64,000 bases of DNA from assembly GCF_964194155.1 (NCBI RefSeq), contig NC_135903.1:34038001-34102000 (forward strand), written 5' to 3'. The notes below the pieces were generated by a model. It searched no databases. It worked only from the letters and a program-made list of their open reading frames with translations, and was not told the DNA's origin. Both the position numbers and the translations under genes were made by a program. Source of the stretch: Cetorhinus maximus (lineage: Eukaryota). Shown piece after piece: positions 4,243-61,200 of the stretch (its first letter is position 1; every line of letters starts with the position of its first letter).

Positions 4243-4483
4243 AGATGAATTTAGGTAATGTTTTGAAAGATGAGAGAGAAGTACAAAATTGTAGGCACTT
4301 AGTGGACAGATTGGGCTAAATGACCTGTTTCTGTGCCATATGCCCCACGTAGGGGAGGTATTACTTGAACTGCTGCCTTCAGGGACCTGTGTACTTGTAC
4401 GTCAAGATCTCTCACTTCATCTACCCCTCTTAGTATATTCCCATTTATTGTGTAATCCCTGTAACTGTTTGACCTCCCTAAAT

Positions 4484-16864: not shown

Positions 16865-17430
16865 TAATAGCTCAAATCAGCAGAAGAAACTGAAAAAGAC
16901 ATGTTTACTACAGGCTGGGAGCAATGAATATTTATTTTTAAAAACTTTCAATTTAAAGCTATTTCCATATATATTTGTAACAAATTTTATATTTTATTGT
17001 ACTGATCACAGAACAATCAGTGACATGATGGTATTATTTATTTTATTTATTGATTGATATTTATTGCTGTGACATTTTCACCTGATGTAATCCTAAACCT
17101 TCAGTGGCTGGGGTGTCTGCTCTGGAATTTACTGTCAGGCTTTCAAGATATGGGTTTGCAGACCTATAAACCCTGGGCTGCACTGACCTTTCCATTTCTC
17201 CCTTCCTAAGTTAAGTGGCCAACTTTCCAATCTATTTCAGCCACTGTAATTTATTGATCTTTATTGTTGTGATGTCTTCATATAATGAAATATTACAGTG
17301 TTATACAATGTATAACGTGAGTTTTTCACAATAACTTATTTAATGATATTTATTAAGATTTGGGGAACACACAATGTTTTTTGTAACTGGAAAATTTTAT
17401 ATACAATGAGAGCCTTTTCCTGTAAATAAA
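16865..17430 (+). pseudogene. Stub of interferon exon 4 end plus 3'UTR of a B-type gene
   Basis: ATAGCTCAAATCAGCAGAAGAAACTGA (IAQISRRN*) followed by sequence matching the 3'UTR at 26394-26930, including AATAAA at 17425. Confidence 0.8.
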
Positions 17431-18750: not shown

Positions 18751-19764
18751 CTGCTGGGCACAGCAACGGCTAACTTGTGTCTTAAATTACATCAGTCACT
18801 ATATATCTAAAGTACTTTATAAGCTGTTGAGTGCTTTGAGACACCTGTGGTCAGGAAGGGCACAATGTGAATGCAAGCCTGTTTTGAAAAAAATATCATC
18901 GAGAAAGCTGGGCCTACACACAAAACTGCCCTCACTCCAGGGTGAATTTATCAGCAGTGCAGTTGTTTACAGGCCTTCCAAAGGGCCCCAAAAAATAAAC
19001 TGGATGATTTGGGTTTGAGTACAGCAACAGACATGTGTTAAAAGGTTTGCAAAGCAACTTTATTAATTTACAAATACAATAACTATTGCATTCCAATTCC
19101 AAAAAAGTGGGAATGAACCAATCCAATTTCCATCACCATTAATTTCTACAAAACAGCAAAGGTTGCTTCCCATTCAAGGGACAAGCATACTGACTTGGAA
19201 CTATTTACCATTTCTTCACTGTTACTGGCTAACACTCCTGGAAAACCCTTCCCAACACCTCTGTAAATTCACCTACACCACATGAACGGCAGCAGTTCAG
19301 GTGTTCAAGGGGGCGGTTCATCACCACCTTCTGTCGGGTAATTAGGGAGGAGCAACAAATTCTGGCCTTTCCAGAGACGCCCACGTTCCATCAAGGAAGA
19401 AATGAAGCCAAATTATGCAAAAGTAGCTGTGAATGATCCGCATATTTTAGTAATGTAAAAATGCACACGCTCCCGTAGGTCCTTCCTATTTCCTCTAATG
19501 TCACTCGCCAGTGTTTTTAATATTCTTCCTTCAGTTCCCTGACCCTCCTTCCGCCTCCGCCTTCAATAATTACAATTCCCACTGTTCTATTCGCCAATAA
19601 CAGCATTGTTGTAAATTGTAGTTTCTCGCGTGTCTCCAGTTGGGGAATGTGGGATCCCGCTCCCACATCCACCCGGACGGTAGATTTTGGTTACACTTCC
19701 AGCTGAGAGGGATTTGGTGACATTTCCTATGTACCCGGGCATTTACCGAATACCCTAAAGCTTT

Positions 19765-20793
19765 TCCCAACTGCCCCTCACCCCTCTCAGTCTGATCCAC
19801 CCTCTTTACAAACCCTCCTCCCTTTCGGAAATGACAAAACACGTCACTTTCCTTCAGGCACTTTCGCTTTGGGATGAAATGGACACCAGGTTAATTTCCA
19901 GAGAGAAAGTGACACGGACACTTTCCCGGGAGAGAGACAAGAAAGAAAGGATGAAAGAAAAGAGAGCGGGATCACTTTCGGACTCAGAATCGGAGCAGAT
20001 CAAATATTCTTTCAATCCGACTCTGAAAATGGCTCCAGAAAACAACCGAGAAATGAGAAACTTCTCCCAGTTAAAGAGCAGATTGTGGGACAGGTCAATC
20101 GGAGCGGAGTCTGTCCCCATGAAGCGGTGTCCCTGGGCTGTGAGCCGAGCTGTCTGCAATGTCCAGCCTGTGAAGTGTGAACAGGACAAGCGCCAGGTGA
20201 ACACACCGCGGGGACACAGTGGATTTCAAAGGGAATCGCTCTTCATGGGGCCCAATGTCAGCACTAAAAGCCGCCGCACCGGATCACCGCTGTCGCTCTC
20301 TCTATAATCCGGATGATAAAATCCAGCCCCCGATACATGTTCACACTGCCCCCAATTCAGAGCCTCCCTCTACACCACCTTCGTGCCCCAGGTGAGCTGA
20401 AGCCACACAACACTGAGCTGGAACCGAGCGCTGCCTGTGATTTTCAACCGGGGATTTTCCACTCGCTGCTTCCGGAATCTCCAGCTTTTACATTCCTGAC
20501 CTCAGAAAGGAAACCGGACAAACTATTGATCTCCCGCAGCTCTTCCAAAAATCCTCGAGCCCGTTTTCACTTTTCGAATGTAATGCCACACATTAAAGCC
20601 GACAGCATGGCAGCGCCAGTGAGAGCACCGAGCAGACTCCACACTCACACTCACACCGTTCGGCAGCACAGGCGCTCGCTCCCGGATCACAAGCGGCTCC
20701 GATTCCACTTTCCCAGTTTAAATCCGCCGCGGAATCACGAAGCCGTCGGTTTCTCATCTTTCACATCGGTGTTTCACTCTGGGTCGCTTGATC
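19765..20793 (+). promoter_or_regulatory. IFN promoter type A copy
   Basis: Near-identical to 10440-11469; kB site at 20450-20460. Confidence 0.72.
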
Positions 20794-20925
20794 ATGGCTT
20801 TGGCGAGTATCTGGAGATTCTGGATGGTGTTGCTCTTCTTGTCCGGGACCATCAGTCTGGGATGTGACAGGCTGCAGTTACAGCAAGTTCTCAACACAGA
20901 GACTCTCAGCAAACTGAATGCAATG
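20794..20925 (+). CDS. Extra interferon exon 1 (signal peptide + first helix) upstream of gene B; alternative first exon or truncated gene
   Basis: MALASIWRFWMVLLFLSGTISLGCDRLQLQQVLNTETLSKLNAM with intact GTGAGT donor; homology to intron 1 stops about 12 nt later; no exon 2 before the next exon 1. Confidence 0.75.
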
Positions 20926-21224
20926 GTGAGTTGAACCCAAAACACCGAGTCGGTAATTAGGTTGAGGGGAGACAGGGAATCAGCCTCCAGGAGAGATTAA
21001 ATCTGGATTTGGGTGAAGGAACAAATGGGATCTGAGAGGAAATTGGAAAGCAGACATTGAGGAGGAGGGCGCTCAATGACGGAAGAAGCGGAATGTGAAC
21101 CTGAAGGGGGAGAGGGGGCAAATCAGAGACAGCCCATCAGTAACAACCATTCAGAATAATAGAGCGACTTTAAGGTCTCAAGGTGCCTCACGGGAATGTT
21201 ATACAGCAACATTTGTTGTGGTGG

Positions 21225-21930
21225 GCACAGCAAGATTTCAAACTTTGCAGATGATACAAATTTTGGAAATGTTGTCAACTGTGATGCGGATGGTGCTGAA
21301 CTTAAAAACGACGTTGGCATGTTTGTGGATTGGGCAGACAAGTGGCAGATGAAGTTCAATGTAGAGAAATGTGAGGTGATACGTTTTGGGAGGCAAGATA
21401 AGGCGAGACCTTATAAAATAAAGGGAGTGACTCTACAGGATGTGCAGGAACAGAGGGACCTCGGTGTATATGCGGATTGGTCATTGAAGATGGCAGGGCA
21501 TATTGAGAGCAGTTAATAAAGAATATACTAGCATAGGCTTTATTAATTGTGGCGTTGAGTAGAAGAGAAAAGAGGTCATGTCGAACTTGTATAAGACACC
21601 AGTTAGGCATCATCTGGAGTACTGTTCTGGGCACCATACTTGAGGAAGGATGTGAGGGTATTGGTGAGAGTACAGAGGAGGTTAACAAGAATCATTCCCA
21701 GGATAACGAACTGTAGCTACGCGGGAGGATTGGAGAGGTTGTCACTGTTTTCCTTGGAGAAAAGAATGTGGAGATTAGGCTTAATTGAGGAACTCAAGAT
21801 ACCCTGTGGGGTATGGACAGCGTAAATAATAAGAAACCGTCTCCACGAAAGCGAACATCAAGAAATATAGGGCACAGGTTGAAAATAGTTGGCAAAGGGA
21901 GTAAATGTGATATGAGGAGCAATTTTTGAA
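21225..21930 (+). mobile_element. CR1 RT remnant between exon 1a and promoter B (copy at about 56495-57200)
   Basis: SNFADDT, WADKWQMKFNVEKCEV, EQRDLGV motifs. Confidence 0.85.
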
Positions 21931-22540
21931 CCCAGGGTGTGATTGGAGCAAACTTCACACAGTGCTTTCAATATTTGAAAATGTGGATGAGAATTTTAAA
22001 ATGAAGGTATTTCTTATCCAGGAGACTGACGCTGTGTTTTGTTTGATCTCCCTGAGGGGATGCATGTCGAACAGAAATAGAAAGGGACCTAAAATAGATT
22101 CTTGGGGACACAGAGGCTAAACGTTGGGGCTGGGTGGGTGATGTTGTTAAGAGATGCCATTCTGGGGGTTTACAGTCTGCATTTAGACAGTGGGAGCCAG
22201 GCAGTGTATCCCCAACCAGCAGGCCCATGGTGGAGAAAGTTGAATTCTGATGTTCATGTCGACTATGTCACAGGACTAGAAGGAGGAGAATGTTTTACAT
22301 ATGTCACGGGCATGTTGAATGTAATTTATGAATTTGCCTATCACCTTATGGAGATCTTGTGATGCAATGGGTCGGACCTGCTTTCAGGCAGAGAACTCAA
22401 GAACAAGTACAGCCTTATAATCTATCAATGTAACCAAATGCCCCTTCATTGCCCCCTTAATGCGAATCCGTTCAATTTGGAGGAAGCATGATAATTTTCC
22501 CAAAACATTGTTAAAACTGTTGATCCAAATTTCTAGAACT

Positions 22541-22943
22541 TTGAGCTGGAACCGAGCGCGGGTTGTGATGTTCTCTCGGGCATCTTACAGTCACTGGATC
22601 AGGAATCTCCAGATTTCAGGTTCCTTATCTCAGACAGGGAGCAGACAAACTCTTCCTCTCCTGAAGTCCTTCCAAAACTCCAGCAACCAGATTTCACTTT
22701 TCGAGTGTAATAGCAACATCGCCAGTCTCCCCTCTTCACAGCGACAGCAACTCCCAGCACAATTCTCACACAAACATACACAAACAGGACTGGACATTCA
22801 GGCGGTCGCTCCGGCTTCACAAGCGGCAGCATTTCCACTCCTCGTGTTTCATTCGCTTCAAAGGAATAGACTTTCGGTGTGGTCCCAGATCCGCTCAGTG
22901 TCTGATCCTCAGCTCGGGGTGTTTCACTCTGGGTCGCTTGATC
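22541..22943 (+). promoter_or_regulatory. IFN promoter type B (diverged paralog of the proximal type A promoter)
   Basis: Shares TGAGCTGGAACCGAGCGC, GGAATCTCCAG and TTTCACTTTTC (22692-22702) with type A; kB site degenerate; unrelated further upstream. Confidence 0.65.
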
Positions 22944-25900
22944 ATGGCTTTGGCGAGTATCTGGAGATTTTGGATGGTGTTGCTCTTCTTGTCCGGGACC
23001 CTCAGTCTGGGATGTGACAGGCTGCAGTTACAGCAAGTTCTCAACACAGAGACTCTCAGAAAACTGAATGCAATGGTGAGTTGAACCTGCAGTCAGAGCA
23101 GGAGGTGAATCACATTGTGTCCGCTTGCTGTGAAATGTCACATCAGGGGAAATGTTTTGCGATTTGTCATTTTGTGCAATGAATTGTCTGTGATTCTCCA
23201 GTATTTGAGTTTTTGGGGCTGATTGTAACAGTGATTGTTTTCCCCTCTCAGGGCGGACCCTTTCCCCGACACTGTATAAGACAGAGACTCTCACTGAAAA
23301 CCAAACCCTTGAACCTGGTGAAACTCTCGAAGGAATTAGAGGTGAGTGAACACTCGGTTCATTTGAGTCACACAGGGCTTTTATACAAAGTAAGATCAAC
23401 AACCGGATCGGAAACTTCCACATCAGGAATTTGAAACAGAGTGAAATGTACCCATTGTGAATGTAGGAGCAGTCTCACTTATTGTATTTCACTCACTATC
23501 TCACTCATGAACTATATCACTCTCTCTAACCGCACTCACTACCCCTTATCTCCAACTCTCTCCCTCCCTGATATTATGTCCCTCCCGCTAACTACCTGCT
23601 CTGGGAACTATCCGACTGGATCTCCCATCTCCTTTTCCTGCAGGGCCTCTAGAATATTCCGTGCAGACCACTGCCTGATGGGCCTGTTGTCAAAGATGTT
23701 TCTCTGCCTAAGCATTTCTACACGGGATAGGTGGTGAGTCAGGTTCCAAAGGCTTCGAGTGTTCGCGACAACAAGGCCAGTTCCATCCTTTGCAACACGT
23801 GGGACAGGTTGAAAGTCAGCACTTGCAGTTTGCGTTCCAAGGGTCCACGCACAGCTTGATGCAGCAAGACCCAAATGTAGTCATCAGGATGAGGGCGATG
23901 TTCAGTGCGTTTTGTCCTCTGATCATTGACTATGTGAAAACTTCTCAACTTTTCTCAACCTAACACCCTTTAATTTTCTCACTGCCTCTAACCACCTCAC
24001 TTCCTCTAATCATCTTATTCCCTGTAACAATTTGCCTCCCTCGAAACATCTCACTCCTCAGCTGCACTGAATGACTTTGGGGCATGAACCACGCAGGCAG
24101 GTTAGGCCATAGGATCATAGAATGATCCTGTGCTGAAGGAGACCGATTGGGCAGAATGGCCTGTTTCTGTGCCACGTTTCCGATCAACTACCTGGTGGAA
24201 AAATATGTTAGTAGGTACGCACTAACCAGCATTCATATATTCAAGAAAAATCACCTTTCCCAAACTTGATTGAGTTATGTGATAATGTAGAAGAGGGTGT
24301 TCATGAGTTTAGTGCGCTTAATCTTCTGCTGATGTCATCATACCTCTGCAGCACTTTGAATGAAAGATATAAATTATTCCCGCTCTCATCCCCCATTACA
24401 ATGCAAAAATCTTCTCTGACTATTTATCCAATTCTCTCTAGAAAGTTATTATTGAATCTGCTTTTGCTGTTTTGTAAATCAATCCATACGCACACTTTTA
24501 AAAGACTAATCATCACAAGATCCAGCGCACAATCCTCATCAACACTCTCTGCTGCATTATCGCATAACTCAATCAAGCTGGGTAAGGATAATTTGATGGT
24601 AAAGATGTCTCCCCACAGATCATTGTATCTGAAGTTTTCCCACCACCCAAAATGGTCTAACTGGCCTGTATTTGTTGGGTTTATCCCTCTTCCATTTTTG
24701 AATGGGATGTAAGTATTTGAAATCTTCTGGTCCGCTGCCATCATGTCCCTCATATCTAAAGAGGACTGGAGGAAAGCGGCCAGAAGTGTCATTTCAACCC
24801 TTGCTTTCCTCAGCAATCTCAGCTGTATTCCGACCAGATCAGGTGACTTTCCTAACCTGAGTGCTGCCAATATTTTACGTAACTCCTCTTTATCTATTTT
24901 AATCCTACCCAATTTCTCTACTCGCTCCCCCTGCACTGTGACTTTTGAAGTATCTGCTTGTGAAGTGAAGACAAATTCCAAGAACTGGTTTAGATCCTCC
25001 GCCATGTCCTTTGTGTCCCACAAGAAGATTTATTTTTTGCTCACTAATCAACACAAACAAACATTTATTTACATGCTTATTAAAAGTTTTTAGCTTCCCT
25101 CTTACGTGACCTGCTCATCAATTCTCACGCATTCTGTTTATTCCTTATTTCTTTTGATAACTTTTCTCCATATTGGCTGCATTCAGCTTGGTTCCTCACT
25201 CAGCTAGGAGCCTAATGTTTCACATAAGGCTTCGTTTTCTGTTTTGTTTTAATGTCTACATCTTTCGGCGATGAGGTCATTGACCTTGCCATGCCCTTCC
25301 TTTCTGCTTCATTGAAAGGAGTCCAGTCTGCAACCATAACATCACCACTTAAAAAGAGCCTCAATTGCTACTTTCCTCCTGAGTTAGCACTATTTAAGAG
25401 GAGATGGTGGCTTAGTGGTAGATTCACAGGGTTAATAATTCATGGCCTAGGCTAATGCTCTGGGTACCTGAGTTCATGCCCCATCACACAGCTGGTGGAA
25501 TTTTAATTCAATCAATAAACGTGGAATATAACACTAGTGTCAGTAATACTGACCATGCAACTATCATGGATATTTGTAAAACCCTTCTGATTCACTAATG
25601 ACTTTTAAGAAAGGAAATGTGACTTCTGCATCTGGACTGGATGACATGTCACTCTCAGCACATGGTCGAATCTTCACTGTCCTTTCAAATATTCAGTTCA
25701 AGGGACATTAGGGATGGACATGTAATGCTGGCTTTGCCAGTGATGCCCACATCCCATGAATGTCTAAAGGAAAATAGAATCCTTGATTCAAATACACCTG
25801 GGCCAGATCCCGTTTAAATGCATAAAATTAATCCTCCCCCTTTTGCCCATTTTCAGCTCTAATTGTATTTTGTTATTTAACATAGTCTGTTCTAAAATTA

Positions 25901-26393
25901 AAGGTAAACATGTCCTTTCCAATGTCATTCTCTACATTATACACAGATACAGGACAGGATCCAGATTGTCCATCAAACCCTGCGTCACATCAGCAAGATC
26001 TACAGCATGAACCTGGGTTCAGCCACATGGGCCCAGGACAAGGTGGAAAACCTCCGGCTTCTCCTGGATCGGCAGCTCGCTGAGCTGGATGAATGTGTCA
26101 GGAAACCAGGATCAGAGCACAAGATGAGGAGAAACTCCGCCATTCACAATTACTTTAGGAAACTGGAAAAGTTTCTCAAACAGGTGGTAGGTCAATTGAT
26201 AAATGACAATGTGATTGCTGGCATGTAGTTCATTTCACCACATTTAAATCTGCGCATTCTCTAATCGGTTTCCCTGAATAATTTTCTTTTTCAGAAATTC
26301 AGTGACTGTGCCTGGGAAATAATCCGCAATGAGACCAGAGCCCGTTTACAACAGCTCCTTTTCATCATAGCACAAATCAGCAGAAGAAACTGA
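22944..26393 (+). CDS. IFN1: Type I interferon gene B, exons 22944-23075, 23252-23341, 25947-26186, 26295-26393
   Basis: Intact 186-codon spliced ORF, GT-AG sites, exon 2 GGPFPRHC..., exon 4 KFSDCAWEIIRNETR...SRRN*. Confidence 0.92.
23580..23890 (-). mobile_element. L1/Tx1-like ORF2 remnant in intron 2 (copies in genes C, D, E)
   Basis: Minus-strand peptide IRQWSARNILEALQEKE..DPVGWFPEQ resembles the Tx1-type ORF2 C-terminal region; recognised from memory, not searched. Confidence 0.4.
24400..25390 (-). mobile_element. Old CR1 ORF2 remnant in intron 2 (copies in C and E; mostly deleted in D)
   Basis: MAEDLNQF..VFT, LGKSP(D/G)LDGI..RLL, FLQSSLD motifs. Confidence 0.75.
25400..25775 (+). mobile_element. 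tRNA-derived SINE upstream of every B-type exon 3
   Basis: A box TGGCTTAGTGG, B-box-like GAGTTCATGCCC, and a 3' tail (ATTAGGGATGG..GCCAGTGATGCCCACATCCC) shared with the LINE tail at 19320-19400; copies near 29180, 36740, 40525, 47200, 50965 and 60685. Confidence 0.7.
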
Positions 26394-29753: not shown

Positions 29754-30200
29754 ACACAGGACAGGATCCAGATTGTCCATCAAACCCTGCGTCACATCAG
29801 CAAGATCTACAGCATGAACCTGGGTTCAGCCACATGGGGCCACGACAAGGCGGAAAACTTCCGGCTTCTCCTGGATCGGCAGCTCGGTGAGCTGGAAGAA
29901 TGTGTCAGGAAACCAGGATCAGAGCACAAGATGAGGAGAAACTCCGCCATTCACAATTACTTTAGGAAACTGGAAAAGTTTCTCAAACAGGAGGTAGGTC
30001 AATTGATAAATGACAATGTGAATGCTGGCATGTAGTTCATTTCACCACATTGAAAACTGCTCATTCTCTAATCGGTTTCCCTGAATAATTTTCTTTTTCA
30101 GAAATTCAGTGACTGTGCCTGGGAAATAATTCGCTATGAGACCAGAGCCCGTTTACAACAACTCCTTTTCATCATAGCACAAATCTGCAGAAGAAACTGA
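29754..30200 (+). pseudogene. Orphan interferon exon 3 (29754-29993) + exon 4 (30102-30200), open frame, intact splice sites
   Basis: TQDRIQ...KQE / KFSDCAWEIIRYETRARLQQLLFIIAQICRRN*. No promoter or exons 1-2 between gene B and this cassette. Pseudogene status is uncertain. Confidence 0.75.
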
Positions 30201-33200: not shown

Positions 33201-33269
33201 TTCCAGCTGAGAGGGATTTGGTGACATTCCTTATGTACCCGGGCATTTACCGAATACCCCAAAGGCTTT

Positions 33270-34297
33270 CCCAACTGCCCCTCACCCCTCTCAGTCTGAT
33301 CCACCCTCTTTACAAACTCTCCTCCCTTTCGGAAATGACAAAACACGTCACTTTCCTTCAGGCACTTTCGCTTTGGGCTGAAATGGACACCAGGTTAATT
33401 TCCAGAGAGAAAGTGACACGGACACTTTCCCGGGAGAGAGACAAGAAAGAAAGGATGAAAGAAAAGAGAGCGGGATCACTTTCGGACTCAGAATCGGAGC
33501 AGATCAAATATTCTTTCAATCCGACTCTGAAAATGGCTCCAGAAAACAACCGAGAAATGAGAAACTTCTCCCAGTTAAAGAGCAGATTGTGGGACAGGTC
33601 AATCGGAGCGGAGTCTGTCTCCATGAAGCGGTGTCCCTGGGCTGTGAGCCGAGCTCTCTGCAATGTCCAACCTGTGAAGTGTGAACAGGACAAGCGCCAG
33701 GTGAACACACCGCGGGGACACAGTGGATTTCAAAGGGAATCGCTCTTCATGGGGCCCAATGTCAGCACTAAAAGCCGCCGCACCGGATCACCGCTGTCGC
33801 TCTCTCTATAATCCGGATGATAAAATCCAGCCCCCGATACATGTTCACACTGCCCCCAATTCAGAGCCTCCCTCTACACCACCTTCGTGCCCCAGGTGAG
33901 CTGAAGCCACACAACACTGAGCTGGAACCGAGCGCTGCCTGTGATTTTCAACCGGGGATTTTCCACTCGCTGCTTCCGGAATCTCCAGCTTTTACATTCC
34001 TGACCTCAGAAAGGAAACCGGACAAACTATTGATCTCCCGCAGCTCTTCCAAAAATCCTCGAGCCCGTTTTCACTTTTCGAATGTAATGCCACACATTAA
34101 AGCCGACAGCATGGCAGCGCCAGTGAGAGCACCGAGCAGACTCCACACTCACACTCACACCGTTCGGCAGCACAGGTGCTCGCTCCCGGATCACAAGCGG
34201 CTCCGATTCGACTTTCCCAGTTTAAATCCGCCGCGGAATCACGAAGCCGTCGGTTTCTCATCTTTCACATCGGTGTCTCACTCTGGGTCGCTTGATC
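33270..34297 (+). promoter_or_regulatory. IFN promoter type A copy
   Basis: Near-identical copy with the same kB and IRF motifs. Confidence 0.72.
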
Positions 34298-37200
34298 ATG
34301 GCTTTGGCGAGTATCTGGAGATTTTGGATGGTGTTGCTCTTCTTGTCCGGGACCCTCAGTCTGGGATGTGACAGGCTGCAGCTACAGCAAGTTCTCAACA
34401 CAGAGACTCTCAGCAAACTGAATGCAATGGTGAGTTGAACCTGCAGCCAGAGCAGGAGGTGAATCACATTGTGTCCGCTTGCTGTGAAATGTCACATCAG
34501 GGGAAATGTTTTGCAATTTGTCATTTTGTGCAATGAATTGTCTGTGATTCTCCAGTATTTGAGTTTTTGGGGCTGATTGTAACAGTGATTGTTTTCCCCT
34601 CTCAGGGCGGACCCTTTCCCCGACACTGTATAAGACAGAGACTCTCACTGAAAACCAAACCCTTGAACCTGGTGAAACTCTCGAAGGAATTAGAGGTGAG
34701 TGAACACTCGGTTCATTTGATTCACACAGGGCTTTTATACAAAGTAAGATTAGCAACCGAATCGGAAACTTCCACATCAGGAATTTGGAATAGAGTGATT
34801 TGTACCCATTGTGAATGTAAGAGCAGTGTTACTTATTGAATTTCACTCACTATCTCACCCATGAACTATATCACTCTCTCTAACTGCATTCACTACCGAC
34901 TTATCTCCAACTATATCCCTCCCTGATATTATGTCCCTCCCTCTAACCACCTGCTCTGGGAGCCATCCGACTGGATCGCCCATCTCCTTTTCCTGCAGGG
35001 CCTATAGATTATTCTGTGCAGACCACTGCCTGCTGGGCATGTTGTCAAAGATGTTTCTCTGCCTAAGCATTTCTACACGGGATAGGTGGTGAGGCAATTA
35101 CAAAGGCTTCGAGTGTTCACGACAGCAAGGCCACACCCATCCTTTGCAACACTGGGGACAGGTTGAAACTCAGCACTTGCAGTTTGCGCTCCAAGGGTCC
35201 ACGCACAGCTTGATGCAGCCAGACACAAATGTAGTCATCAGGATGAGGGCGATGCTGAGAGCATTTTGTCCTCTGATCATTGACTACGTGAAAACTTCTC
35301 AACTTCTCTCAACCTAACACCATTTAATTTTCTCCCTGCCTCTAACCACCTCACTTCCTCTAATCATCTTATTCCCTGTAACAATTTGCCTCCCTCGAAA
35401 CATCTCACTCCTCAGCTGCACTGAATGACTTTGGGGCATGAACCACGCAGGCAGGTTAGGCCATAGGATCATAGAATGATCCTGTGCTGAAAGAGACCGA
35501 TTGGGCAGAATAGTCTGTTTCCTTGCCACGTTTCCGATCAAGTACCTGGTGGAAAAATACGTTAGTAGGTACGCACTAACCAGCATTCATATATTCAAGA
35601 AAAATCACCTTTCCCAAACTTGATTGAGTTATGTTATAATGTAGCAGAGAGTGTTCATGAGGTTAGTGCGCTTAATCTTCTGATGATGTCATCATACCTC
35701 TGCAGCACTTTGAATGAACGATTCAAATTATTCCCGATCTCATCCCCCATTACAATGCAAAAATCTTCTCTGACTATTTATCCAATTCTCTCTAGAAAGT
35801 TATTATTGAATCTGCTTTTGCTGTTTTGTAAATCAATCCATACGCACACTTTTAAAAGACTAATCATCAGAAGATCCAGCGCACAATCCTCATCAACGCT
35901 CTGCTACATTATCACATAACTCAATCAAGCTTGGTAAAGATAATTTGATGGTAAAGATGTCTCCCCAGAGATCACTGTGTCTGAAGTTTTCCCACCACCC
36001 AAAATAGTCTAACTGGCCTGTATTTGTTGGGTTTATCCCTCTTCCATTTTTGAATGGGATGTAAGTATTTGAAATCTGCTGGTCCGCTGCCATCATGTCC
36101 TTCATATCTAAAGAGGACTGGAGGAATGCGGCCAGAAGTGTCATTTCAACCCATGCTTTCCTCAGCAATCTCAGCTGTATTCCGTCCAGATCAGGTGACT
36201 TTCCTAACCTGAGTGCTGCCAATATTTTACGTACCTCCTCTATCTAGTTTTATCCTACCCAATTCCTCTACTCGCTCCCCCTGCACTGTGACTTTTGAAG
36301 CATCTGCTTGTGAAGTGAAGACAAATTCCAAGAACTGGTTTAGATCCTCCACCATGTCCTTTGTGTCCCACAAGAAGATTTATTTTTTGCTCACTAATCA
36401 ACATTTATTTACATGCTTATTAAAGGTTTTTAGCTTCCCTCTTACGTGACCTGCTCATCAATTCTCATGCATTCTGTTTATTCCTTATTTCTTTTGATAA
36501 CTTTTCTCCATATTGGCTGCATTCAGCTTGGTTCCTCACTCTGCTAAGAGCCTAATGTTTCACATAAGGCTTCGTTTTCTGTTTTGTTTTAATGTCTACA
36601 TCTTTTGGCGATGAGGTCATTGACCTTTCCATGCCCTTCCTTTCTGCTTCATTGAAAGGAGTCCAGTCTGCAACCATAACATCTCCACTTAAAAAGAGCC
36701 TCAATTGCTACTTTCCTCCTGAGGAAGCACTATTTAAGAGGAGTCGGTGGCTTAGTGGTAGATTCACAGGGTTAATAATTCATGGCCTAGGCTAATGCTC
36801 TGGGTACCTGAGTTCATGCCCCATCACACAGCTGGTGGAATTTTAATTCAATCAATGAACGTGGAATATAACACTAGTGTCAGTAATACTGACCATGCAA
36901 CTATCATGGATCTTTGTAAAACCCTTCTGATTCACTAATGCCTTTTAAGAAAGCAAACGTGTCTTCTGCACCTGGACTGGATGACATGTCACTCTCAGCA
37001 CATGGTCGAATCTTCACTGTCATTTCAAATATTCAGTTCAAGGGATATTAGGGAAGGACATCTAATGCTGGCTTTGCCAGTGATGCCCACATCCCATGAA
37101 TGAATAAAGGAAAAAAGAATCCTTGATTCAAATACACCTGGGCCAGATCCCCTTTAAACAAACTAAAATTAATCCTCCCCCTTTTGCCCATTTTTAGCTC

Positions 37201-37733
37201 TATTTGTATTTTGTTCTTTAACATAGTCAGTTCTAAAACTAAAGGTGTACATGTCCTCTCTAATGTCATTCTCTTCATTATACACAGACACAGGACAGGA
37301 TCCAGATTGTCCATCAAACCCTGCGTTACATCAGCAAGATCTACAGCATGAACCTGGGTTCAGCCACATGGGCCCAGGACAAGGTGGAAAACCTCCGGCT
37401 TCTCCTGGATCGGCAGCTCGGTGAGCTGGAAGAATGTGTCAGGAAAGCAGGATCAGAGCACAAGATGAGGAGAAACTCTGCCATTCACAATTACTTTAGG
37501 AAACTGGAAAAGTTTCTCAAACAGGAGGTAGGTCAATTGATAAATGACAATGTGATTGCTGGCATGTAGTTCATTTCACCACATTTAAATCTGCTCATTC
37601 TCTAATCAGTTTCCCTGAATAATTTTCTTTTCAGAAATTCAGTGACTGTGCCTGGGAAATAATCCGCAATGAGACCAGAGCCCGTTTACAACAGCTCCTT
37701 TTCATCATAGCACAAATCAGCCGAAGAAACTGA
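34298..37733 (+). CDS. IFN1: Type I interferon gene C, exons 34298-34429, 34606-34695, 37288-37527, 37635-37733
   Basis: Same exon sizes (132/90/240/99 nt), intact splice sites, CAWE motif, no stops seen. Confidence 0.92.
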
Positions 37734-41097: not shown

Positions 41098-41544
41098 ACA
41101 CAGGACAGGATCCAGATTGTCCATCAAACCCTGCGTCACATCAGCAAGATCTACAGCATGAACCTGGGTTCAGCCACATGGGCCCAGGACAAGGTGGAAA
41201 AGTTCCGGCTTCTCCTGGACCGGCAGCTCGGTGAGCTGGAAGAATGTGTCAGGAAAGCCGGATCAGAGCACAAGATGAGGAGAAACTCCGCCATTCACAA
41301 TTAATTTAGGAAACTGGAAAAGTTTCTCAAACAGGAGGTAGGTCAATTGATAAATGACAATGTGAATGCTGGCATGTAGTTCATTTCACCACATTGAAAA
41401 CTGCTCATTCTCTAATCGGTTTCCCTGAATAATTTTCTTTTTCAGAAATTCAGTGACTGTGCCTGGGAAATAATTCGCTATGAGACCAGAGCCCGTTTAC
41501 AACAACTCCTTTTCATCATAGCACAAATCTGCAGAAGAAACTGA
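41098..41544 (+). pseudogene. Orphan interferon exon 3 (41098-41337) + exon 4 (41446-41544) with premature stop
   Basis: TAC>TAA at 41302-41304 in the HNYFRK motif; lacks exons 1-2. Confidence 0.88.
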
Positions 41545-44500: not shown

Positions 44501-44611
44501 ATCCCGCTCCCACATCCATCCGGACGGTAGATTTTGGTGACACTTCCAGCTGACAGGGATTTGGTGACATTCCCTATGTACCCGGGCATTTACCGAATAC
44601 CCCAAAGCCTT

Positions 44612-45640
44612 TCCCAACTGCCCCTCACCCCTCTCAGTCTGATCCACCCTCTTTACATACCCTCCTCCCTTTCGGAAATGACAAAACACGTCACTTTCCT
44701 TCAGGCACTTTCGCTTTTGGCTGAAATGGACACCAGGTTAATTTCCAGAGAGAAAGTGACACAGACACTTTCCCGGGAGAGAGACAAGAAAGAAAGGATG
44801 AAATAAAAGAGAGCGGGATCACTTTCGGACTCAGAATCGGAGCAGATCAAATATTCTTTCAATCCGACTCTGAAAATGGCTCCAGAAAACAACCGAGAAA
44901 TGAGAAACTTCTCCCAGTTAAAGAGCAGATTGTGGGACAGGTCAATCGGAGCGGAGTCTGTCTCCATGAAGCGGTGTCCCTGGGCTGTGAGCCGAGCTGT
45001 CTGCAATGTCCAACCTGTGAAGTGTGAACAGGACAAGCGCCAGGTGAACACACCGCGGGGACACAGTGGATTTCAAAGGGAATCGCTCTCCATGGGGCCC
45101 AATGTCAGCACTAAAAGCCGCCGCACCGGATCACCGCTGTCGCTCTCTCTATAATCCGGATGATAAAATCCAGCCCCCGATACATGTTCACACTGCCCCC
45201 AATTCAGAGCCTCCCTCTACACCACCTTCGTGCCCCAGGTGAGCTGAAGCCACACAACACTGAGCTGGAACCGAGCGCTGCCTGTGATTTTCAACCGGGG
45301 ATTTTCCACTCGCTGCTTCCGGAATCTCCAGCTTTTACATTCCTGACCTCAGAAAGGAAACCGGACAAACTATTGATCTCCCGCAGCTCTTCCAAAAATC
45401 CTCGAGCCCGTTTTCACTTTTCGAATGTAATGCCACACATTAAAGCCGACAGCATGGCAGCGCCAGTGAGAGCACCGAGCAGACTCCACACTCACACTCA
45501 CACCGTTCGGCAGCACAGGCGCTCGCTCCCGGATCACAAGCGGCTCCGATTCGACTTTCCCAGTTTAAATCCGCCGCGGAATCAAGAAGCCGCCGGTTTC
45601 TCATCTTTCACATCGGTGTCTCACTCTGGGTCGCTTGATC
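44612..45640 (+). promoter_or_regulatory. IFN promoter type A copy
   Basis: Near-identical copy with the same kB and IRF motifs. Confidence 0.72.
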
Positions 45641-48191
45641 ATGGCTTTGGCGAGTATCTGGAGATTTTGGATGGTGTTGCTCTTCTTGTCCGGGACCCTC
45701 AGTCTGGGATGTGACAGGCTGCACTTACAGCAAGTTCTCAACACAGAGACTCTCAGCAAACTGAATGCAATGGTGAGTTGAACCTGCAGCCAGAGCAGGA
45801 GGTGAATCACATTGTGTCCGCTTGCTGTGAAATGTCACATCAGGGGAAATGTTTTGCGATTTGTCATTTTGTGCAATGAATAGCCTGTGATTCTCCAGTA
45901 TTTGAGTTTTTGGGGCTGATTTTAACAGTGATTGTTTTCCCCTCTCAGGGCGGACCCTTTCCCCGACACTGTATAAGACAGAGACTCTCACTGAAAACCA
46001 AACCCTTGAACCTGGTGAAACTCTCGAAGGAATTAGAGGTGAGTGAACACTCGGTTCATTTGATTCACACAGGGCTTTTATACAAAGTAAGATCAACAAC
46101 CGGATCGGAAACTTCCACATCAGGAATTTGGAACAGAGTGATTTGTACCCATTGTGAATGTAAGAGCAGTCTTACTTAGTGAATTTCACTCACTATCTCA
46201 CTCATGAACTATATCACTCTCTCTAACCGCACTCACTAACCCCTTATCTCCAACTATATCCCTCCCTGATATTATGTCCCTCCCTCTAACTACCTGCTCT
46301 GCGAGCCATCCGACTGGATCTCCCATCTCCTTTTCCTGCAGGGCCTATAGATTATTCTGGGCAGACCACTGCCTGATGGGCCTGTTGTCAAAGATGTTTC
46401 TCTGCCTAAGCATTTCTATACGGGAAAGGTGGTGAGGCAATTCCAAAGGCTTCGAGTGTTCACGACAGCAAGGCCACTCCCATCCTTTGCAACAACGGGG
46501 ACTGGTTGAAACTCAGCACTTGCAGTTTGCGTTCCAAGGGTCCACGCACAGCTTGATGCAGCAAGACACCAATGTAGTTATCAGGATGAGGGCGATGTTG
46601 AGAGCATTTTGTCCTCTGATCATTGACTACGTGAAAACTTCTCAACATTTCTCAACCTAACACCCTATAATTTTCTCCCTGCCTCTAACCACCTCACTTC
46701 CTCTAATCATCTTATTCCCTGTAACAATTTGCCTCGCTCGAAACATCTCACTCCTGAGCTGCACTGAATGACTTTGGGGCATGAATCACGCAGGCAGGAT
46801 AGGCCAAAGTATCATAGAATGAAGGTTTATTTTATGCTCACGAATGATCAAAAACAAATATTTAATTACATGCTTATTAAAGGTTTTTAGCTTCCCTCTT
46901 ACGTGACCTACTCATCAATTCTCATGCATTCTGTTCACTCCTCATTTCTCTTGATAACTTTTCTCCATATTGGCTGCATTCAGCTTGGTTCCTCACTCTG
47001 CTAAGAGCCTAATGTTTCACATAAGGCTTCGTTTTCTGTTTTGTTTTAATCTCTACATCTTTTGGCGAGGACGTCATTGACCTTTCCATGCCCTTCCTTT
47101 CTGCTTCATTGAAAGGAGTCCAGTCTGCAACCATAACATCTCCACTTAAAAAGAGCCTCAATTGCTACTTTCCTCCTGAGGAAGCACTATTTAAGAGGAG
47201 ATGGTGGCTTAGTGGTAGATTCACAGGTTTAATAATTCATGGCCTAGGCTAATGCTCTGGGCACCTGAGTTCATGCCCCATCACACAGCTGGTGGAATTT
47301 TAATTCAATCAATAAACGTGGAATATAACACTAGTGTCAGTATTACTGACCATGCAACTGTCATGGATCTTTGTAAAACCCTTCTGATTCACTAATGCCT
47401 TTTAAGAAAGAAAACGTGACTTCTGCACCTGGACTGGATGACATGTCACTCTCAGCACATGGTCGAATCTTCACTGTCCTTTCAAATATTCAGTTCAAGG
47501 GACATTAGGGATGGACATGTAATGCTGGCTTTGCCAGTGATGCCCACATCCCATGAATGAATAAAGGAAAAAAGAATCCTTGATTCAAATACACCTGGGC
47601 CAGATCCCTTTTAATTGAAACTAAAATTAATCGTCCCCCTTTGCCCATTTTTATCTCCATTTATAATTTGTTCTTTATCATAGTCAGTTCTAAAATTAAA
47701 GGTGAACATGTCCTCTCTAATGTCATTCTCTACATTATACACAGACACAGGACAGGATCCAGATTGTCCATCAAACCCTGCATCACGTCAGCAAGATCTA
47801 CAGCATGAACCTGGGTTCAGCCACATGGGCCCAGGACAAGGTGGAAAACCTTCGGCTTCTCCTGGATCGGCAGCTCGGTGAGCTGGAAGAATGTGTCAGG
47901 AAAGCAGGATCAGAGCACAAGATGAGGAGAAACTCTGCCATTCACAATTACTTTAGGAAACTGGAAAAGTTTCTCAAACAGGAGGTAGGTCAATTGATAA
48001 ATGACAATGTGAATGGTGGCATGTAGTTCATTTCACCCCATTTAAATCTGCGCATTCTCTAATCGGTTTCCCTGAATAATTTTCTTTTTCAGAAATTCAG
48101 TGACTGTGCCTGGGAAATAATTCGCAATGAGACCAGAGCCCGTTTACAACAGCTCCTTTTCATCATAGGACAAATCAGCAGAAGAAACTGA
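45641..48191 (+). CDS. IFN1: Type I interferon gene D, exons 45641-45772, 45949-46038, 47745-47984, 48093-48191
   Basis: Intact spliced ORF; intron 2 shortened by about 0.9 kb relative to B/C/E. Confidence 0.92.
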
Positions 48192-54900: not shown

Positions 54901-55014
54901 TGGGATTCCGCTCCCACATCCACCCGGACGGTAGATTTTGGTCACACTTCCAGCTGAGAGGGATTTGGTGACATTTCCTATGTAGCCGGGCATTTACCGA
55001 ATACCCTAAAGCTT

Positions 55015-56063
55015 TTCCCAACTGCCCCTCACCCCTCTCAGTCTGATCCACCCTCTTTACATACCCTCCTCCCTTTCGGAAATGACAAAACACGTCACTT
55101 TCCTTCAGGCACTTTCGCTTTGGGATGAAATTGACACCAGGTTAATTTCCAGAAAGAAAGTGACACGGACACTTTCCCGGGAGAGAGACAAGAAAGAAAT
55201 GATGAAAGAAAAGAGAGCGGGATCACTTTCGGACTCAGAATCGGAGCAGATCAAATATTCTTTCAATCCGACTCTGAAAATGGCTCCAGAAAACAACCGA
55301 GAAATGAGAAACTTCTCCCAGTTAAAGAGCAGATTGTGGGACAGGTCAATCGGAGCGGAGTCTGTCCCCATGAAGCGGTGTCCCTGGGCTGTGAGCCGAG
55401 CTGTCTGCAATGTCCAACCTGTGAAGTGTGAACAGGACAAGCGCCAGGTGAACACACCGCGGGGACACAGTGGATTTCAAAGGGAATCGCTCTCCATGGG
55501 GCCCAATGTCAGCACTAAAAGCCGCCGCACCGGATCACCGCTGTCGCTCTCTCTATAATCCGGATGATAAAATCCAGCCCCCGATACATGTTCACACTGC
55601 CCCCAATTCAGAGCCTCCCTCTACACCACCTTCGTGCCCCAGGTGAGCTGAAGCCACACAACACTGAGCTGGAACCGAGCGCTGCCTGTGATTTTCAACC
55701 GGGGATTTTCCACTCGCTGCTTCCGGAATCTCCAGCTTTTACATTCCTGACCTCAGAAAGGAAACCGGACAAACTATTGATCTCCCGCAGCTCTTCCAAA
55801 AATCCTCGAGCCCGTTTTCACTTTTCGAATGTAATGCCACACATTAAAGCCGACAGCATGGCAGCGCCAGTGAGAGCACCGAGCAGACTCCACACTCACA
55901 CTCACACCGTTCGGCAGCACAGGCGCTCGCTCCCGGATCACAAGCGGCTCCGATTCGACTTTCCGAGTTTAAATCCGCTCGCAAGAACCGTTTTCGCCGC
56001 GGAACCACGAAGCCGCCGGTTTCTCATCTTTCACATCGGTGTTTCACTCTGGGTCGCTTGATC
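55015..56063 (+). promoter_or_regulatory. IFN promoter type A copy with 19 extra nt after the TATA-like box
   Basis: kB site at 55701-55711; extra TCGCAAGAACCGTTTTCGC at 55979-55997. Confidence 0.72.
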
Positions 56064-56195
56064 ATGGCTTTGGCGAGTATCTGGAGATTTTGGATGGTGT
56101 TGCTCTTCTTGTCCGGGACCCTCAGTCTGGGATGTGACAGGCTGCAGTTACAGCAAGTTCTCAACACAGAGACTCTCAGCATACTGAATGCAATG
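56064..56195 (+). CDS. Extra interferon exon 1 upstream of gene E; alternative first exon or truncated gene
   Basis: Intact 44 codons (...ETLSILNAM), GTGAGT donor, same downstream junction as the copy at 20794. Confidence 0.75.
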
Positions 56196-57820
56196 GTGAG
56201 TTGAACCCAAAACACCGAGTCGGTAATTATGTTGAGGGGAGAGAGGGAATCAGCCTCCAGGAGAGATTAAATCTGAATTTGGGTGAAGGAACAAATGGGA
56301 TCCGAGAGGAAACTGGAAAGCAGACATTGAGGAGGAGGGCGCTCAGTGACGGACGGAGCGGAATGTGACCCTGAAGGGGGAGAGGGGGCAAATCAGAGAC
56401 AGCCCATCAGTAACAACCATTCAGAATAATAGAGCCACTTTAAGGTCTCAAGGTGCCTCACGGGAATGTTATACAGCAACATTTGTTGTGGTGGGCACAG
56501 CAAGATTTCAAACTTTGCAGATGATACGAAGTTGGAAATGCTGTCGACAGTGACGGGGATGGTGTTGAACTTAAAAAGGACATAGACATGTTGGTGGATT
56601 GGGCAGACAAGCGGCAGATGAAGTTTAGTGCAGAGAAGTGTGAGGTGATAAGTTTTGGGAGGCAAGATAAAGTGAGACGGTACAAAATAAAGGGAGTGAC
56701 TCTACAGGAGGTGCAGGAACAGAGGGACCTCGGTGTATATGCGGATTGGTCAGTGAAGATGGCTGGGCATATTGAGAGAGCAGTTAATAAAGCATATACT
56801 AGCTTAGGCTTTATTAATCGTGGCATTGAGTAGAACAGAAAAGAGGTCATGTCGAACTTGTATAAGACACTAGTTAGGCATCATCTGGAATACTGTTCTG
56901 GGCACCATACTTGAGGAAAGATGTGAGGGTATTGGTGAAAGTACAGAAGAGATGCACAAGAATGATTCCCAGGATAATGAACTGTATCTACGCGGGAGGA
57001 TTGGAGAGGTTGTCAATGTTTTCCTTGGAGAAAAGAATGTGGAGATTAGGTTTAATTGAGGAACTCAAGATCCTGTGGGGTATGGACAGGGTAAATAATG
57101 AGAAACTGTCTCCACTAAAGCGAACATCAAGAAATATAGGGCAAAGGTTCAAAATAGTTGGCAAAATGAGTAAATGTGATGTGAGGAGCAATTTTTGAAC
57201 CCAGGATGTGATTGGAGCAAACTTCACACAGTGCTTTCAATATTTGAAAATGAGGATGAGAATTTTAAAATGAAGGTATTTCTTATCCAGGAGACTGACG
57301 CTGTGTTTTGTTTGATCTCCCTGAGGAGTGGCATGTCGAACAGAAATAGAAAGGGACCAAAAATAGATTCTTGGGGACACAGGGGCTAAACGTTGGGGCT
57401 GGGTGGGTGATGGTTGAGAAGAGATGCCATTCTGGGGGTTTATAGGCTGCATTTAGACAGTGGGAGCCAGGCAGTGTATCCCCAACCAGCAGGCCCATGG
57501 TGGAGAATGTTGAATTCTGATGTTCATGTCGAACATGTCAAAGGTTGCGGACAGGGCGAGAAGGAGGAGAACAGTTTACGTATGTCACGGGCATGTTGAA
57601 TGTAATTTATGAATTTATCTATCATCTTATGGAGATCTTGTGATGCAATGGGTCGGACCTGCTTTCAGGCAGAGAACTCAAGAACAACTACAGCCTTATA
57701 ACCTATCAATGTAACCAAATGCCCCTTCATTGCCCCCTTGATGTGAATCAGTTCAATTTGGAGGAAACATTATAATTTTCCCAAAATATTGTTAATACTT
57801 TTGATCAAAATTATAGAACT

Positions 57821-58228
57821 TTGAGCTGGAACCGAGCGCGTGTTGTGATTTTCTCTCGGGCATCTTCCAGTCACTGGTTCAGGAATCTCCAGATTTCAGA
57901 TTCCTTACCTCAGACAGGGAGCAGACAAACTCGTCCGCTCCTGAAGTCCTTCCAAAACTCCCGCAAGCAGATTTCACTTTTCGGGTGTAATAGCAACATC
58001 GCCAGTCCCCCCTCTTCACAGCGACAGCAACTCCCAGCACAATTCTCACACAAACATACACACACACACAGGACTGGACATTCAGGCGGTCGCTCCGGCT
58101 TCACAAGCGGCAGCATTTCCACGCCTGGTGTTTCATTCGCTTCAAAGGAAGTGTCTTTCGGAGTTGATCCCGGATCCAGTCAGTGTCTGATCCTCAGCTC
58201 GGGGTGTTTCACTCTGGGTCTCTTGATC
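57821..58228 (+). promoter_or_regulatory. IFN promoter type B copy
   Basis: Homologous to 22541-22943; IRF element near 57972-57982. Confidence 0.65.
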
Positions 58229-61200
58229 ATGGCTTTGGCGAGTATCTGGAGATTCTGGATGGTGTTGCTCTTCTTGTCCGGGACCCTCAGTCTGGGATGT
58301 GACAGGCTGCACTTACAGCAAGTTCTCAACACAGAGACTCTCAGAAAACTGAATGCAATGGTGAGTTGAACCTGCAGCCAGAGCAGGAGGTGAATCACAT
58401 TGTGTCCGCTTGCTGTGAAATGTCACATCAGGGGAAATGTTTTGCGATTTGTCATTTTGTGCAATGAATAGTCGGTGATTCTTCAGTATTTGAATTTATG
58501 GGGCTGATTGTAACAGTGATTGTTTTCCCCTCTCAGGGCGGACCCTTTCCCCGACACTGTATAAGACAGAGACTCTCACTGAAAACCAAACCCTTGAACC
58601 TGGTGAAACTCTCGAAGGAATTAGAGGTGAGTAAACACTCGGTTCATTTGATTCACACAGGGCTTTTATACAAAGTAAGATCAACAACCGGATCGGAAAC
58701 TTCCACATCAGGAATTTGGAACAGAGTGATTTGTACCCATTGTGAATGTAGGAGCAGTCTCACTTATTGTATTTCACTCACTATCTCACTCATGAACTAT
58801 ATCACTCTCTCTAACCGCACTCACTACCCCTTATCTCCAACTCTCTCCCTCCCTGATATTATGTCCCTCCCGCTAACTACCTGCTCTGGGAACCATCCGA
58901 CTGGATCTCCCATCTCCTTTTCCTGCAGGGCCTCTAGATTATTCCGTGCAGACCACTGCCTGATGGGCCTGTTGTCAAAGATGTTTCTCTGCCTAAACAT
59001 TTCTACACGGGATAGGTGGTGAGGCAAGTTCCAAAGGCTTCGAGTGTTCCCGACAACAAGGCCACTCCCATGCTTTACAACACCGGGGACAGGTTTAAAC
59101 TCAACACTTGCAGTTTGCGTTCAAAGGGTCCACGCACAGCTTGATGCAGCCAGACACAAATGTAGTCATCAGGATGAGGGCGATGTTGAGTGCGTTTTGT
59201 CCTCTGATCATTGACTTCGTGAAAACTTCTCAACTTTTCTCAACCTAACACCCTATAATTTTCTCACCGCCTCTAACCACCTCACTTCCTCTAAACATCT
59301 TATTCCCTGTAACAATTTGCCTCCCTCGAAACATCTCACTCCTGAGCTGCACTGAATGACTTTGGGGCATGAATCACGCAGGCAGGATAGGTCATAGGAT
59401 CATAGAATGATCCTGTGCTGAAGGAGTCCGATTGGGCAGAATGGTCTGTTTCTGTGCCACGTTTCCGATCAACTACCTGGTGGATAAATACGTTAGTAGG
59501 TACGCACTAACCAGCATTCATATATTCAAGAAAAATCACCTTTCCCAAACTTGATTGAGTTATGTGATAATGTAGCAGAGCGTCTTCATGAGATTAGTGC
59601 GCTTAATCTTCTGATGATGTCATCATACCTCTGCAGCACTTTGAATGAACGATTCAAATTAATCCCGCTTTCATCCCCCATTACAATGCAAAATTTTTCT
59701 CTGACTATTTATCCAATTCTCTCTTGAAAGTTATTATTGAATCTGCTTTTGCTGTTTTGTAAATCAATCCGTACGCACACTTTTAAAAGGCTAATCATCA
59801 GAAGATCCAGCGCACAATCCTCATCAACACTCTCTGCTACATTATCACTTAACACAATCAAGCTTGGTAAAGATAATTTGATGGTAAAGATGTCTCCCCA
59901 GAGATCATTGTGTCTGAAGGTTTCCCACCACCCAAAATGGACTAACTGGCCTGGAGTTGTTGGATTTATCCCTCTTCCATTTTTGAATGGGATGTAAGTA
60001 TTTGAAATCTTCTGGTCCGCTGCCATCATGTCCCTCATATCTAAAGAGGACTGGAGGAATGCGGCCAGAAGTGTTATTAAAACCCTTGCTTTCCTCAGCA
60101 ATCTCAGCTGTATTCCGTCCAGACCAGGTGACTTTCCCAACCTGAGTGCTGCCAATATTTTACGTACCTCCTCTTTATCTATTTTTATCCTGCCCAATTT
60201 CTCTACTCGCTCCCCCTTCACTGTGACTTTTGAAGCATCTGCTTGTGAAGTGAAGACAAATTCCAAGAATTGGTTTAGATCCTCCGCCATGTCCTTTGTA
60301 TCCCACAAGAAGATTTATTTTTTGCTCACTAATCATCACAAACAAACATTTATTTACATGCTTATTAAAGGTTTTTAGCTTCCCTCTTACGTGATCTGCT
60401 CATCAATTTTCATGCATTCTGTTTATTCCTCATTTCTTTTGATAACATTTCTCCATATTGGCTGCATTCAGCTTGGTTCCTCACTGTGCTAAGAGCCTAA
60501 TGTTTCACATAAGGCTTCGTTTTCTGTTTTGTTTTAATCTCTACATCTTTTGGCGATGACGTCATTGACCTTTCAACGCCCTTCCTTTCTGCTTCATTGA
60601 AAGGAGTCCAGTCTGCAACCATAACATCTCCACTTAAAAAGAGCCTCAATTGCTACTTTCCTCCCGAGGATGCACTATTTAAGAGGAGATGGTGGCTTAG
60701 TGGTAGATTCACAGGTTTAATAATTCATGACCTAGGCTAATGCTCTGGGCACCTGAGTTCATGCCCCATCACACAGATGGTGGAATTTTAATTCAATCAA
60801 TAAACGTGGAATATAACACTAGTGTCAGTAATACTGACCATGCAACTATCATGGATCTTTGTAAAACCCTTCTGATTCACTAATGCCTTTTAAGAAAGGA
60901 AACGTGACTTCTGCACCTGGACTGGATGACATGTCACTCTCAGCACATGGTCGAATCTTCACTGTCCTTTCAAATATTCAGTTCAAGGGACATTAGGGAT
61001 GGGCATCTAATGCTGGCTTTGCCAGTGATGCCCACATCCCATGAATGAATAAAGGAAAAAAGAATCCTTGATTCAAATACACCTGGGCCAGATCCCATTT
61101 AAACGCACTAAAATTAATCCTCCCCTTTTTGACCGATTTTAGCTCTATTTGAATTTTGTTCTTTAACATAGTCTGTACTAAAACTAAAGGTGAACATGTC

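Follow-up and report, generated by a model that had tools for sequence, protein, structure and literature searches.

Region B, at 22542-22943 of the window (the whole 64-kb stretch of DNA analysed here), is probably the old 5' region of a type I interferon (IFN) gene of the Y type, displaced by a captured promoter, A, and now drifting in intron 1 and largely non-functional, as judged from comparison of the copies within the sequence. If so, the locus would be a clear case of promoter capture and replacement in an immune gene array, in which the intermediate (A plus B) adjoins the product (A only). An earlier note had taken A and B for two promoters of one transcription unit that divide induction into an early and a late mode. 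On present evidence B is more likely a by-product of array turnover; if it is active, the locus would represent regulatory diversification without protein diversification.

Type I interferon genes of the window

Shark type I IFN genes of four exons lie in tandem on the + strand of the window. Exon 3 (25947-26186) matched a Cetorhinus maximus interferon alpha-F-like protein, from a cluster of 22, at 100% identity over 99% of length, and matched Pfam family PF00143 (E 6.5e-12; for protein P0002, E 3.4e-27). Thirty-one of 62 candidate proteins passed, every one with PF00143 and a shark or ray name. The genes have four exons, three introns and four cysteines (positions 24, 52, 124 and 159), as expected of shark type I IFNs. 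Four exons and four cysteines are likewise given for the type I IFN genes of cartilaginous fish in the available portions of PMC5332411 and PMC6640115, and the genes of the window share with these the four exons, the four cysteines, PF00143 and the tandem cluster. The shark IFN genes themselves are already known and annotated, with proteins in RefSeq.

23252..23341, + strand: exon 2, Y type, identical in all four Y genes
25947..26186, + strand: exon 3, PF00143
26295..26393, + strand: exon 4 with stop codon
10439..15769, + strand: paralog of type X, with promoter A; its exons at 11470, 11769, 15322 and 15671
33267..37733, + strand: Y gene driven by A that has no B block; colinear with unit 1 once the block is taken out
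44610..48191, + strand: second A-driven Y gene without the B block

Exon 1 is present in seven copies, exon 2 in five and the exon 3-4 block in eight. One gene is of type X (ATG at 11470) and four are of type Y; over 186 residues, X and Y proteins differ at 30-33 positions and Y proteins among themselves at 5-10. The X-type exon 2 is found in white shark P0010 and the Y-type exon 2 in white shark P0006, and the X/Y split is therefore older than basking and white shark.

Three Y genes are followed, 3.8 kb downstream, by a second exon 3-4 block (29754-30200, 41098-41544 and 51506-51952) without its own exon 1 or 2, and a search of the window for a divergent exon 1 or 2 belonging to these blocks found none. 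The block at 29754-30200 is intact, with open frames, normal splice sites and an additional cysteine near the end, and could be an alternative 3' end for its Y gene. The block at 41098-41544 has an in-frame stop, and that at 51506-51952 has lost its GT donor. Behind the X gene, 16867-16893 consists of a 27-base exon 4 end followed by Y-type 3' flank, a remnant of a deleted gene. Positions 4230-4310 bear a weak likeness to the middle of IFN exon 3 (E 0.04-0.08) with an acceptor-like site adjoining; the likeness had no match from a second IFN type and is possibly due to chance. Intron 2 of the X gene contains on the minus strand (12498-13550) an open frame of 350 codons without a Pfam match, which presumably resembles the remnant of a retroelement endonuclease.

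Motifs in regions A and B

Motifs were located by searching with IUPAC consensus patterns rather than with position-weight matrices; the pattern for a kB site is GGGRNWYYCC. Pattern search and alignment of A with B bore out the kB, IRF and GAAAGTG motifs and the coordinates that had been named for them. The features of A are, in the copy upstream of B:

19763..20937, + strand: A tract copy 2, homogenised; distal and proximal regions, exon 1 and 12 intron-1 bases
19845..19979, four on the minus and one on the plus strand: distal cluster of five GAAAGTG words
20451..20460, + strand: consensus kB site of A, -343 from the ATG
20565..20575, - strand: IRF-type element of A, -229 from the ATG
20717..20723, + strand: TATA-like word, -77 from the ATG, without counterpart in B

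The consensus kB site GGGATTTTCC occurs in all five A copies (at 11127, 20451, 33955, 45298 and 55702), and these five are the sole exact matches to the pattern on either strand of the 64 kb; 0.03 exact matches were expected in the A proximal region (P = 0.033, 300 shuffles). Five GAAAGTG words lie in 19763-20100 against 0.13 expected, a number that none of 300 shuffles reached, the motif having been picked post hoc. TATA-like words stand at -77 and -202 from the ATG, neither preserved in B. The A copies differ pairwise by 8-15 positions in about 1030 bases upstream of the ATG (~1%) and have a CpG observed/expected ratio of 1.08. With a consensus kB site plus IRF elements, as found by pattern, region A has the makeup of an IFN-beta-like promoter. 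It is a concrete candidate for a shark IFN promoter, kept in related organisms and spread over the paralogs by conversion.

A copy 5 (55665-56063) retains a 19-base segment that is missing from the other four A copies, is present in organisms C and D and is aligned across by B. The 19 bases would thus have been lost recently in an ancestor of the four A copies, and conversion or duplication would have spread the loss. Long open reading frames in the A and B leaders (158, 184 and 185 aa) were considered as genes and rejected, having no Pfam family at the cut-off; that of 184 aa is also shifted in frame by indels in organisms C and D.

Region B and the exon behind it comprise the following:

22542..22943, + strand: region B copy 1, a paralog of A's proximal 380 bp and probably a relic promoter or leader of the Y paralog
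22578..22588, + strand: degenerate counterpart of the A kB site, 3 mismatches (2 mismatches in copy 2, at 57858)
22602..22610, + strand: second kB-like site GGAATCTCC, the same in all 7 copies
22692..22702, - strand: IRF-type element of B, the same in all 7 copies
22944..23075, + strand: the IFN exon 1 that follows B; 44 codons, with an intact GTGAG donor and, on inspection, a signal peptide

Homology between A and B starts abruptly at 22542 and runs through to the ATG at 22944, so that A and B are paralogous 5' regions before near-identical type I IFN coding sequences, as had been proposed. Neither B copy has an exact kB match at the position of the A site, and copy 1 carries one change there beyond those of copy 2. 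The second kB-like site, a pattern picked post hoc and one mismatch from the kB consensus, is identical in all seven A and B copies (at 20474 in A and 22602 in B). The postulated difference in NF-kB wiring thus holds for the consensus site, found only in A, but not for this one; with GGAATCTCC the same as in A, it is not clear that B lacks NF-kB input.

The IRF element lies on the minus strand, reads TTTCACTTTTC on the + strand and is identical in the seven 5' regions; GAAANNGAAA with one mismatch occurs twice against 0.7-0.8 expected (P 0.14-0.20), which makes the element weak by itself. Upstream of B (21891-22540) there is no GAAAGTG, as the note had said. IFN-alpha-like promoters need several clustered IRF elements. 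B has one AANNGAAA core and no GAAAGTG, and the loss of the distal cluster removes IRF-type sites, the opposite of what an IFN-alpha-like B would need. The CpG observed/expected ratio of B is 0.67-0.74 against 0.38 for the window, and the exons behind B are intact. An exact GAAANNGAAA lies at 22074-22083 and at 57343-57352, about 870 bases upstream of the B ATG (P = 0.06), at a distance resembling that of the A distal cluster and at the edge of a high-copy repeat.

Layout of the B loci and use of exon 1

Both B loci consist of A, exon 1, 12 intron bases, a 1.6-kb spacer, B, a second exon 1, intron 1 and exons 2-4. The parts not yet listed are:

20794..20925, + strand: the upstream ('orphan') copy of exon 1, following A, with frame and donor intact; RefSeq model XP_078385331.1
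20938..22541, no strand: spacer containing repeats, among them the remnant of a LINE reverse transcriptase (21196-21513); present in the two B-bearing units only
55014..58360, + strand: second unit, with A, upstream exon 1 (56064), spacer, B (57822-58228) and exon 1 (58229); XP_078385334.1

The LINE remnant matched RVT_1 at E 4e-4, under the Pfam cut-off. The block between the two exon-1 copies measures 2150 and 2165 bases, and B is missing from two of the four Y-type genes in the window. When the 2150-bp block is removed from unit 1, the remainder aligns with the B-less gene at 34298, the one used in this alignment of the two B-less genes (34298 and 45641), with 185 mismatches in 5181 columns and 28 gap columns; units 1 and 4, both B-bearing, show 197 mismatches in 5196 columns. 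In their upstream flank the B-less genes match the B-bearing units, not the X gene. B-bearing and B-less genes would be linked most simply by crossing-over from one exon-1 copy to the other, presumably in the direction of loss. The tandem promoter-plus-exon-1, whose B block is removable, represents a variation on ordinary array turnover.

In sequence and in RefSeq models alike, an upstream exon with an intact donor and an in-frame downstream exon are present, as in an alternative first exon. The proposal that A and B share a transcription unit therefore stands as an arrangement: the upstream A exon, with its donor, lies 2.15 kb before B, and both could feed exons 2-4. At both B loci the RefSeq models, automated and perhaps based on homology, skip B by splicing from the upstream A exon: P0032 (XP_078385331.1) and P0043 (XP_078385334.1) match the upstream exons exactly and then the exons of the B loci. 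The B exon is in none of the 15 proteins listed of the 22-member cluster. Accessions ...330 to ...334 are the five window genes in order.

Four of 24 listed sequencing runs were compared with the window; none was listed as RNA, and three small-share runs, two of them among the four, were taken as RNA by guess. A contig of run X20 covers the A leader at 19899-20926, breaks at the exon-1 donor and continues with 86 other letters, and one of run X18 covers 20450-20926, breaks at the exon-1 donor and continues with 585 other letters; both runs were taken as RNA by guess and come from two studies and two related organisms, and the comparison covered a stretch that excluded exon 2. The spliced contigs listed were all of the A-leader kind and from other organisms, and in Cetorhinus maximus no read or contig joining the upstream exon to exon 2 turned up among those listed. 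A DNA contig (X5) passes the donor to 20937. The 86 and 585 letters are compatible in length with exon 2 and with exons 2-4 plus 3' UTR. What the X20 and X18 contigs show is splicing of transcripts whose A leader takes in the kB and IRF sites, and contigs of this kind cannot mark starts. Positions 22710-22943 were without cover in the two runs guessed to be RNA, and 22456-22943 were without cover in X18, which is not evidence of silence.

The spliced contigs of related organisms thus contain a leader of up to 895 bases upstream of the ATG (19899-20793). Because the long A leader of the window holds 12 upstream ATGs, the proximal region would be expected to give a further, short leader that is productive, as in the two-region promoters of teleost IFNa (PMC5127012), and the TATA-like word at -77 would be a candidate for it.

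Divergence, origin of B and known systems

The two B copies differ at 23 of 378 positions (6.1%) and the spacer plus intron 2 of the two B loci at 228 of 4204 (5.4%; P = 0.56 against B). A2 and A5 differ at 6/651 and 4/380 positions (10/1031 together), with P values of 1e-8 and 2e-5. Without CpG sites the differences were 16/336 in B, 311/6138 in the flanks and 8/919 in A. The divergence of B thus equals that of its flanks, as in sequence that is not maintained by selection, although with two B copies there is little power to detect short motifs under constraint. Both B copies retain the IRF element and the second kB-like site unchanged, a matter of only 20 bases. CpG transitions between the B copies (2/21 against 35/125 in the flanks, P = 0.10) show a trend to low methylation. 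Conversion rather than selection may account for how little the A copies diverge.

A and B differ at 40 of 170 positions of the 5' block, against 75 of 179 of the 3' block (P = 3e-4); the 5' motif block of B, being closer to A than the 3' block, therefore experienced constraint during some of its history. The 24-42% by which A and B differ is similar in order to the X-Y distance in intron 1 (39/127), exon 2 (26/90) and intron 3 (26/108). Exon 1 of X and Y differs at 4/132, and its near-identity, to go by these comparisons, is a conversion patch. A is found on the X gene too, with near identity from 10439 to about 11640 and abrupt ends, and the X-type gene is the probable source of A. In DNA of organism C, among the matches listed, two A contigs gave 25/727 differences and a contig of B plus flank, with only 236 bases within B, gave 63/926 (P = 0.003); an A-flank contig gave 16/196, the four contigs having been chosen among 32 matches listed and the denominators being span minus gaps.

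B would on these grounds be the original 5' region of Y and A that of X, with Y capturing A via the homogenised exon 1. An old duplication would have produced the paralogs, X with 5' region A and Y with 5' region B, and a copy of A with exon 1 and 12 intron bases would later have been placed 1.6 kb upstream of B, an event suggested by the arrangement observed. Transcripts from A, as modelled in RefSeq, would splice the upstream exon 1 to exon 2 and skip spacer, B and second exon 1. Crossing-over between the exon-1 copies would delete the 2.15-kb block and give plain A-driven Y genes, in line with the observed colinearity if deletion was the direction. Selection together with gene conversion would hold A near-identical, and B would drift. 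Induction of all five genes would then run via one IFN-beta-like promoter A, driven by NF-kB and IRF3/7, as its motifs and established IFN biology suggest.

B might instead be a live but weak or tissue-restricted alternative promoter, responsive to NF-kB (through the second site) and to IRF, and differing from A in strength and not in early or late action. Such activity is unlikely, though it would fit several observations: GGAATCTCC and the IRF element are identical in seven of seven copies, conservation is higher in the motif block than elsewhere in B, CpG is high relative to the window with few CpG transitions, the exon behind B is intact, and B stands with its flank on one contig in organism C. 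The neutral rate at which the B copies diverge, the absence of the TATA-like words and the skipping of the B exon in RefSeq models argue against it. It is less likely again that tandem homologous promoters, each with its own exon 1, act onto the same exons 2-4 to give two induction modes for an almost identical protein, with exon-1 crossing-over toggling between the dual- and single-promoter state. The specific division put forward in the note, an IFN-beta-like early A (NF-kB plus IRF3) and a maintained IFN-alpha-like late B (IRF7) on the same exons 2-4, we regard as doubtful to a still greater degree. It draws on the consensus kB site (5/5 in A, 0/2 in B) with the IRF element kept in B, on an arrangement that permits two first exons, on the exact GAAANNGAAA upstream of B and on IRF3/IRF7 splits among teleost IFN promoters. 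A maintained late promoter free of NF-kB is, however, not supported: against it stand the kB-like site that B retains, its single IRF element where A has the same element plus five GAAAGTG words, neutral drift with an extra change inside the degenerate kB site of copy 1, the lack of TATA-like words and the absence of B from two of four Y genes, one of which is a B-bearing unit minus the block.

Two further readings deserve very little weight. In one, B is part of a 5' leader or an internal exon, with the start in the distal cluster and an acceptor at 22742 for the upstream exon. The spliced contigs are indeed continuous over A from 19899 (X20) and 20450 (X18), so that the A kB and IRF sites can be transcribed, and an acceptor-like site is present at 22742 and 58022, in copy 2 at 207 bases from the ATG, in frame and stop-free. 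In copy 1, however, the splice is out of frame (distance 202) and meets a stop, the long A leader has its 12 upstream ATGs, the contigs cannot mark starts, and acceptor-like sites occur at 0.48 per kb in the window, or about 0.18 expected in B. As a real acceptor the site was rejected, being within background, failing a stricter filter and probably due to chance. Hardest of all to credit is that the succession of A exon, spacer and B is an assembly artefact: the array is highly repetitive and none of the contigs listed spans the whole stretch, but the arrangement is present twice with 99/1599 spacer differences, both upstream exons break at the same base, and a contig of run X5 crosses the junction (20908-21113), though with only 30 letters on one side, one fewer than the rule for bridging demands. 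Displacement of B by a captured A is accordingly retained as the probable reading.

Mammalian IFN-beta and IFN-alpha form a pair of IRF3- and IRF7-driven promoters. IFN-beta has kB and IRF sites as A does, and B is without the consensus kB site. Salmon IFNa reportedly has a kB site and IFNb/c reportedly lacks one. In their accessible portions, PMC10425769, PMC7582293 and bioRxiv 10.64898/2026.05.30.728932 contributed nothing on this point. The accessible text of PMC6640115 does not contain the word 'promoter', and that of PMC5332411 gives no description of a shark promoter. The literature searched, with subscription journals and supplements outside its scope, yielded no study of shark or cartilaginous-fish IFN promoters, and neither the duplicated first exon nor the A/B mosaic turned up in it.

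IRF3- and IRF7-driven IFN promoters are described for zebrafish IFNphi1/phi3 (PMC5127012, available part) and croaker IFNh/IFNd (PMC5013148, available part), so that the convergence claimed for an early/late split would not be new; in salmonids, IFN subtypes are cell- and stimulus-specific (PMC5127012, section 13). As far as these sources go, the zebrafish, croaker and mammalian pairs are separate genes with divergent proteins and tested promoters, whereas B has fewer IRF sites, a kB-like site and no between-copy constraint. The teleost IFNa/IFNphi1 promoters, as given in the part available of PMC5127012 (also citing Bergan 2006), have two regions and resemble A in the distal IRF-type cluster, the proximal kB/IRF block and the long-leader contigs. 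Their long transcript, by the same account, lacks a signal peptide. In contrast to teleost IFNa as described there, no intron was observed in the A leader, and the upstream unit has its own full coding exon 1.

Gene conversion and birth-death turnover in IFN arrays are reported in the available part of PMC6640115, and the window shows the same patchwork identity, sharp tract ends, partial duplicates and broken copies as are set out there. In the window the homogenised stretch comprises promoter and exon 1 (about 1.2 kb), and the paralogs sharing it are 24-31% apart in exon 2 and in introns 1 and 3. Among accessions XP_078385318-341, one X-type protein appears under three accessions seven apart (...323, ...330 and ...337), and this spacing suggests a higher-order repeat of about seven genes extending beyond the window.
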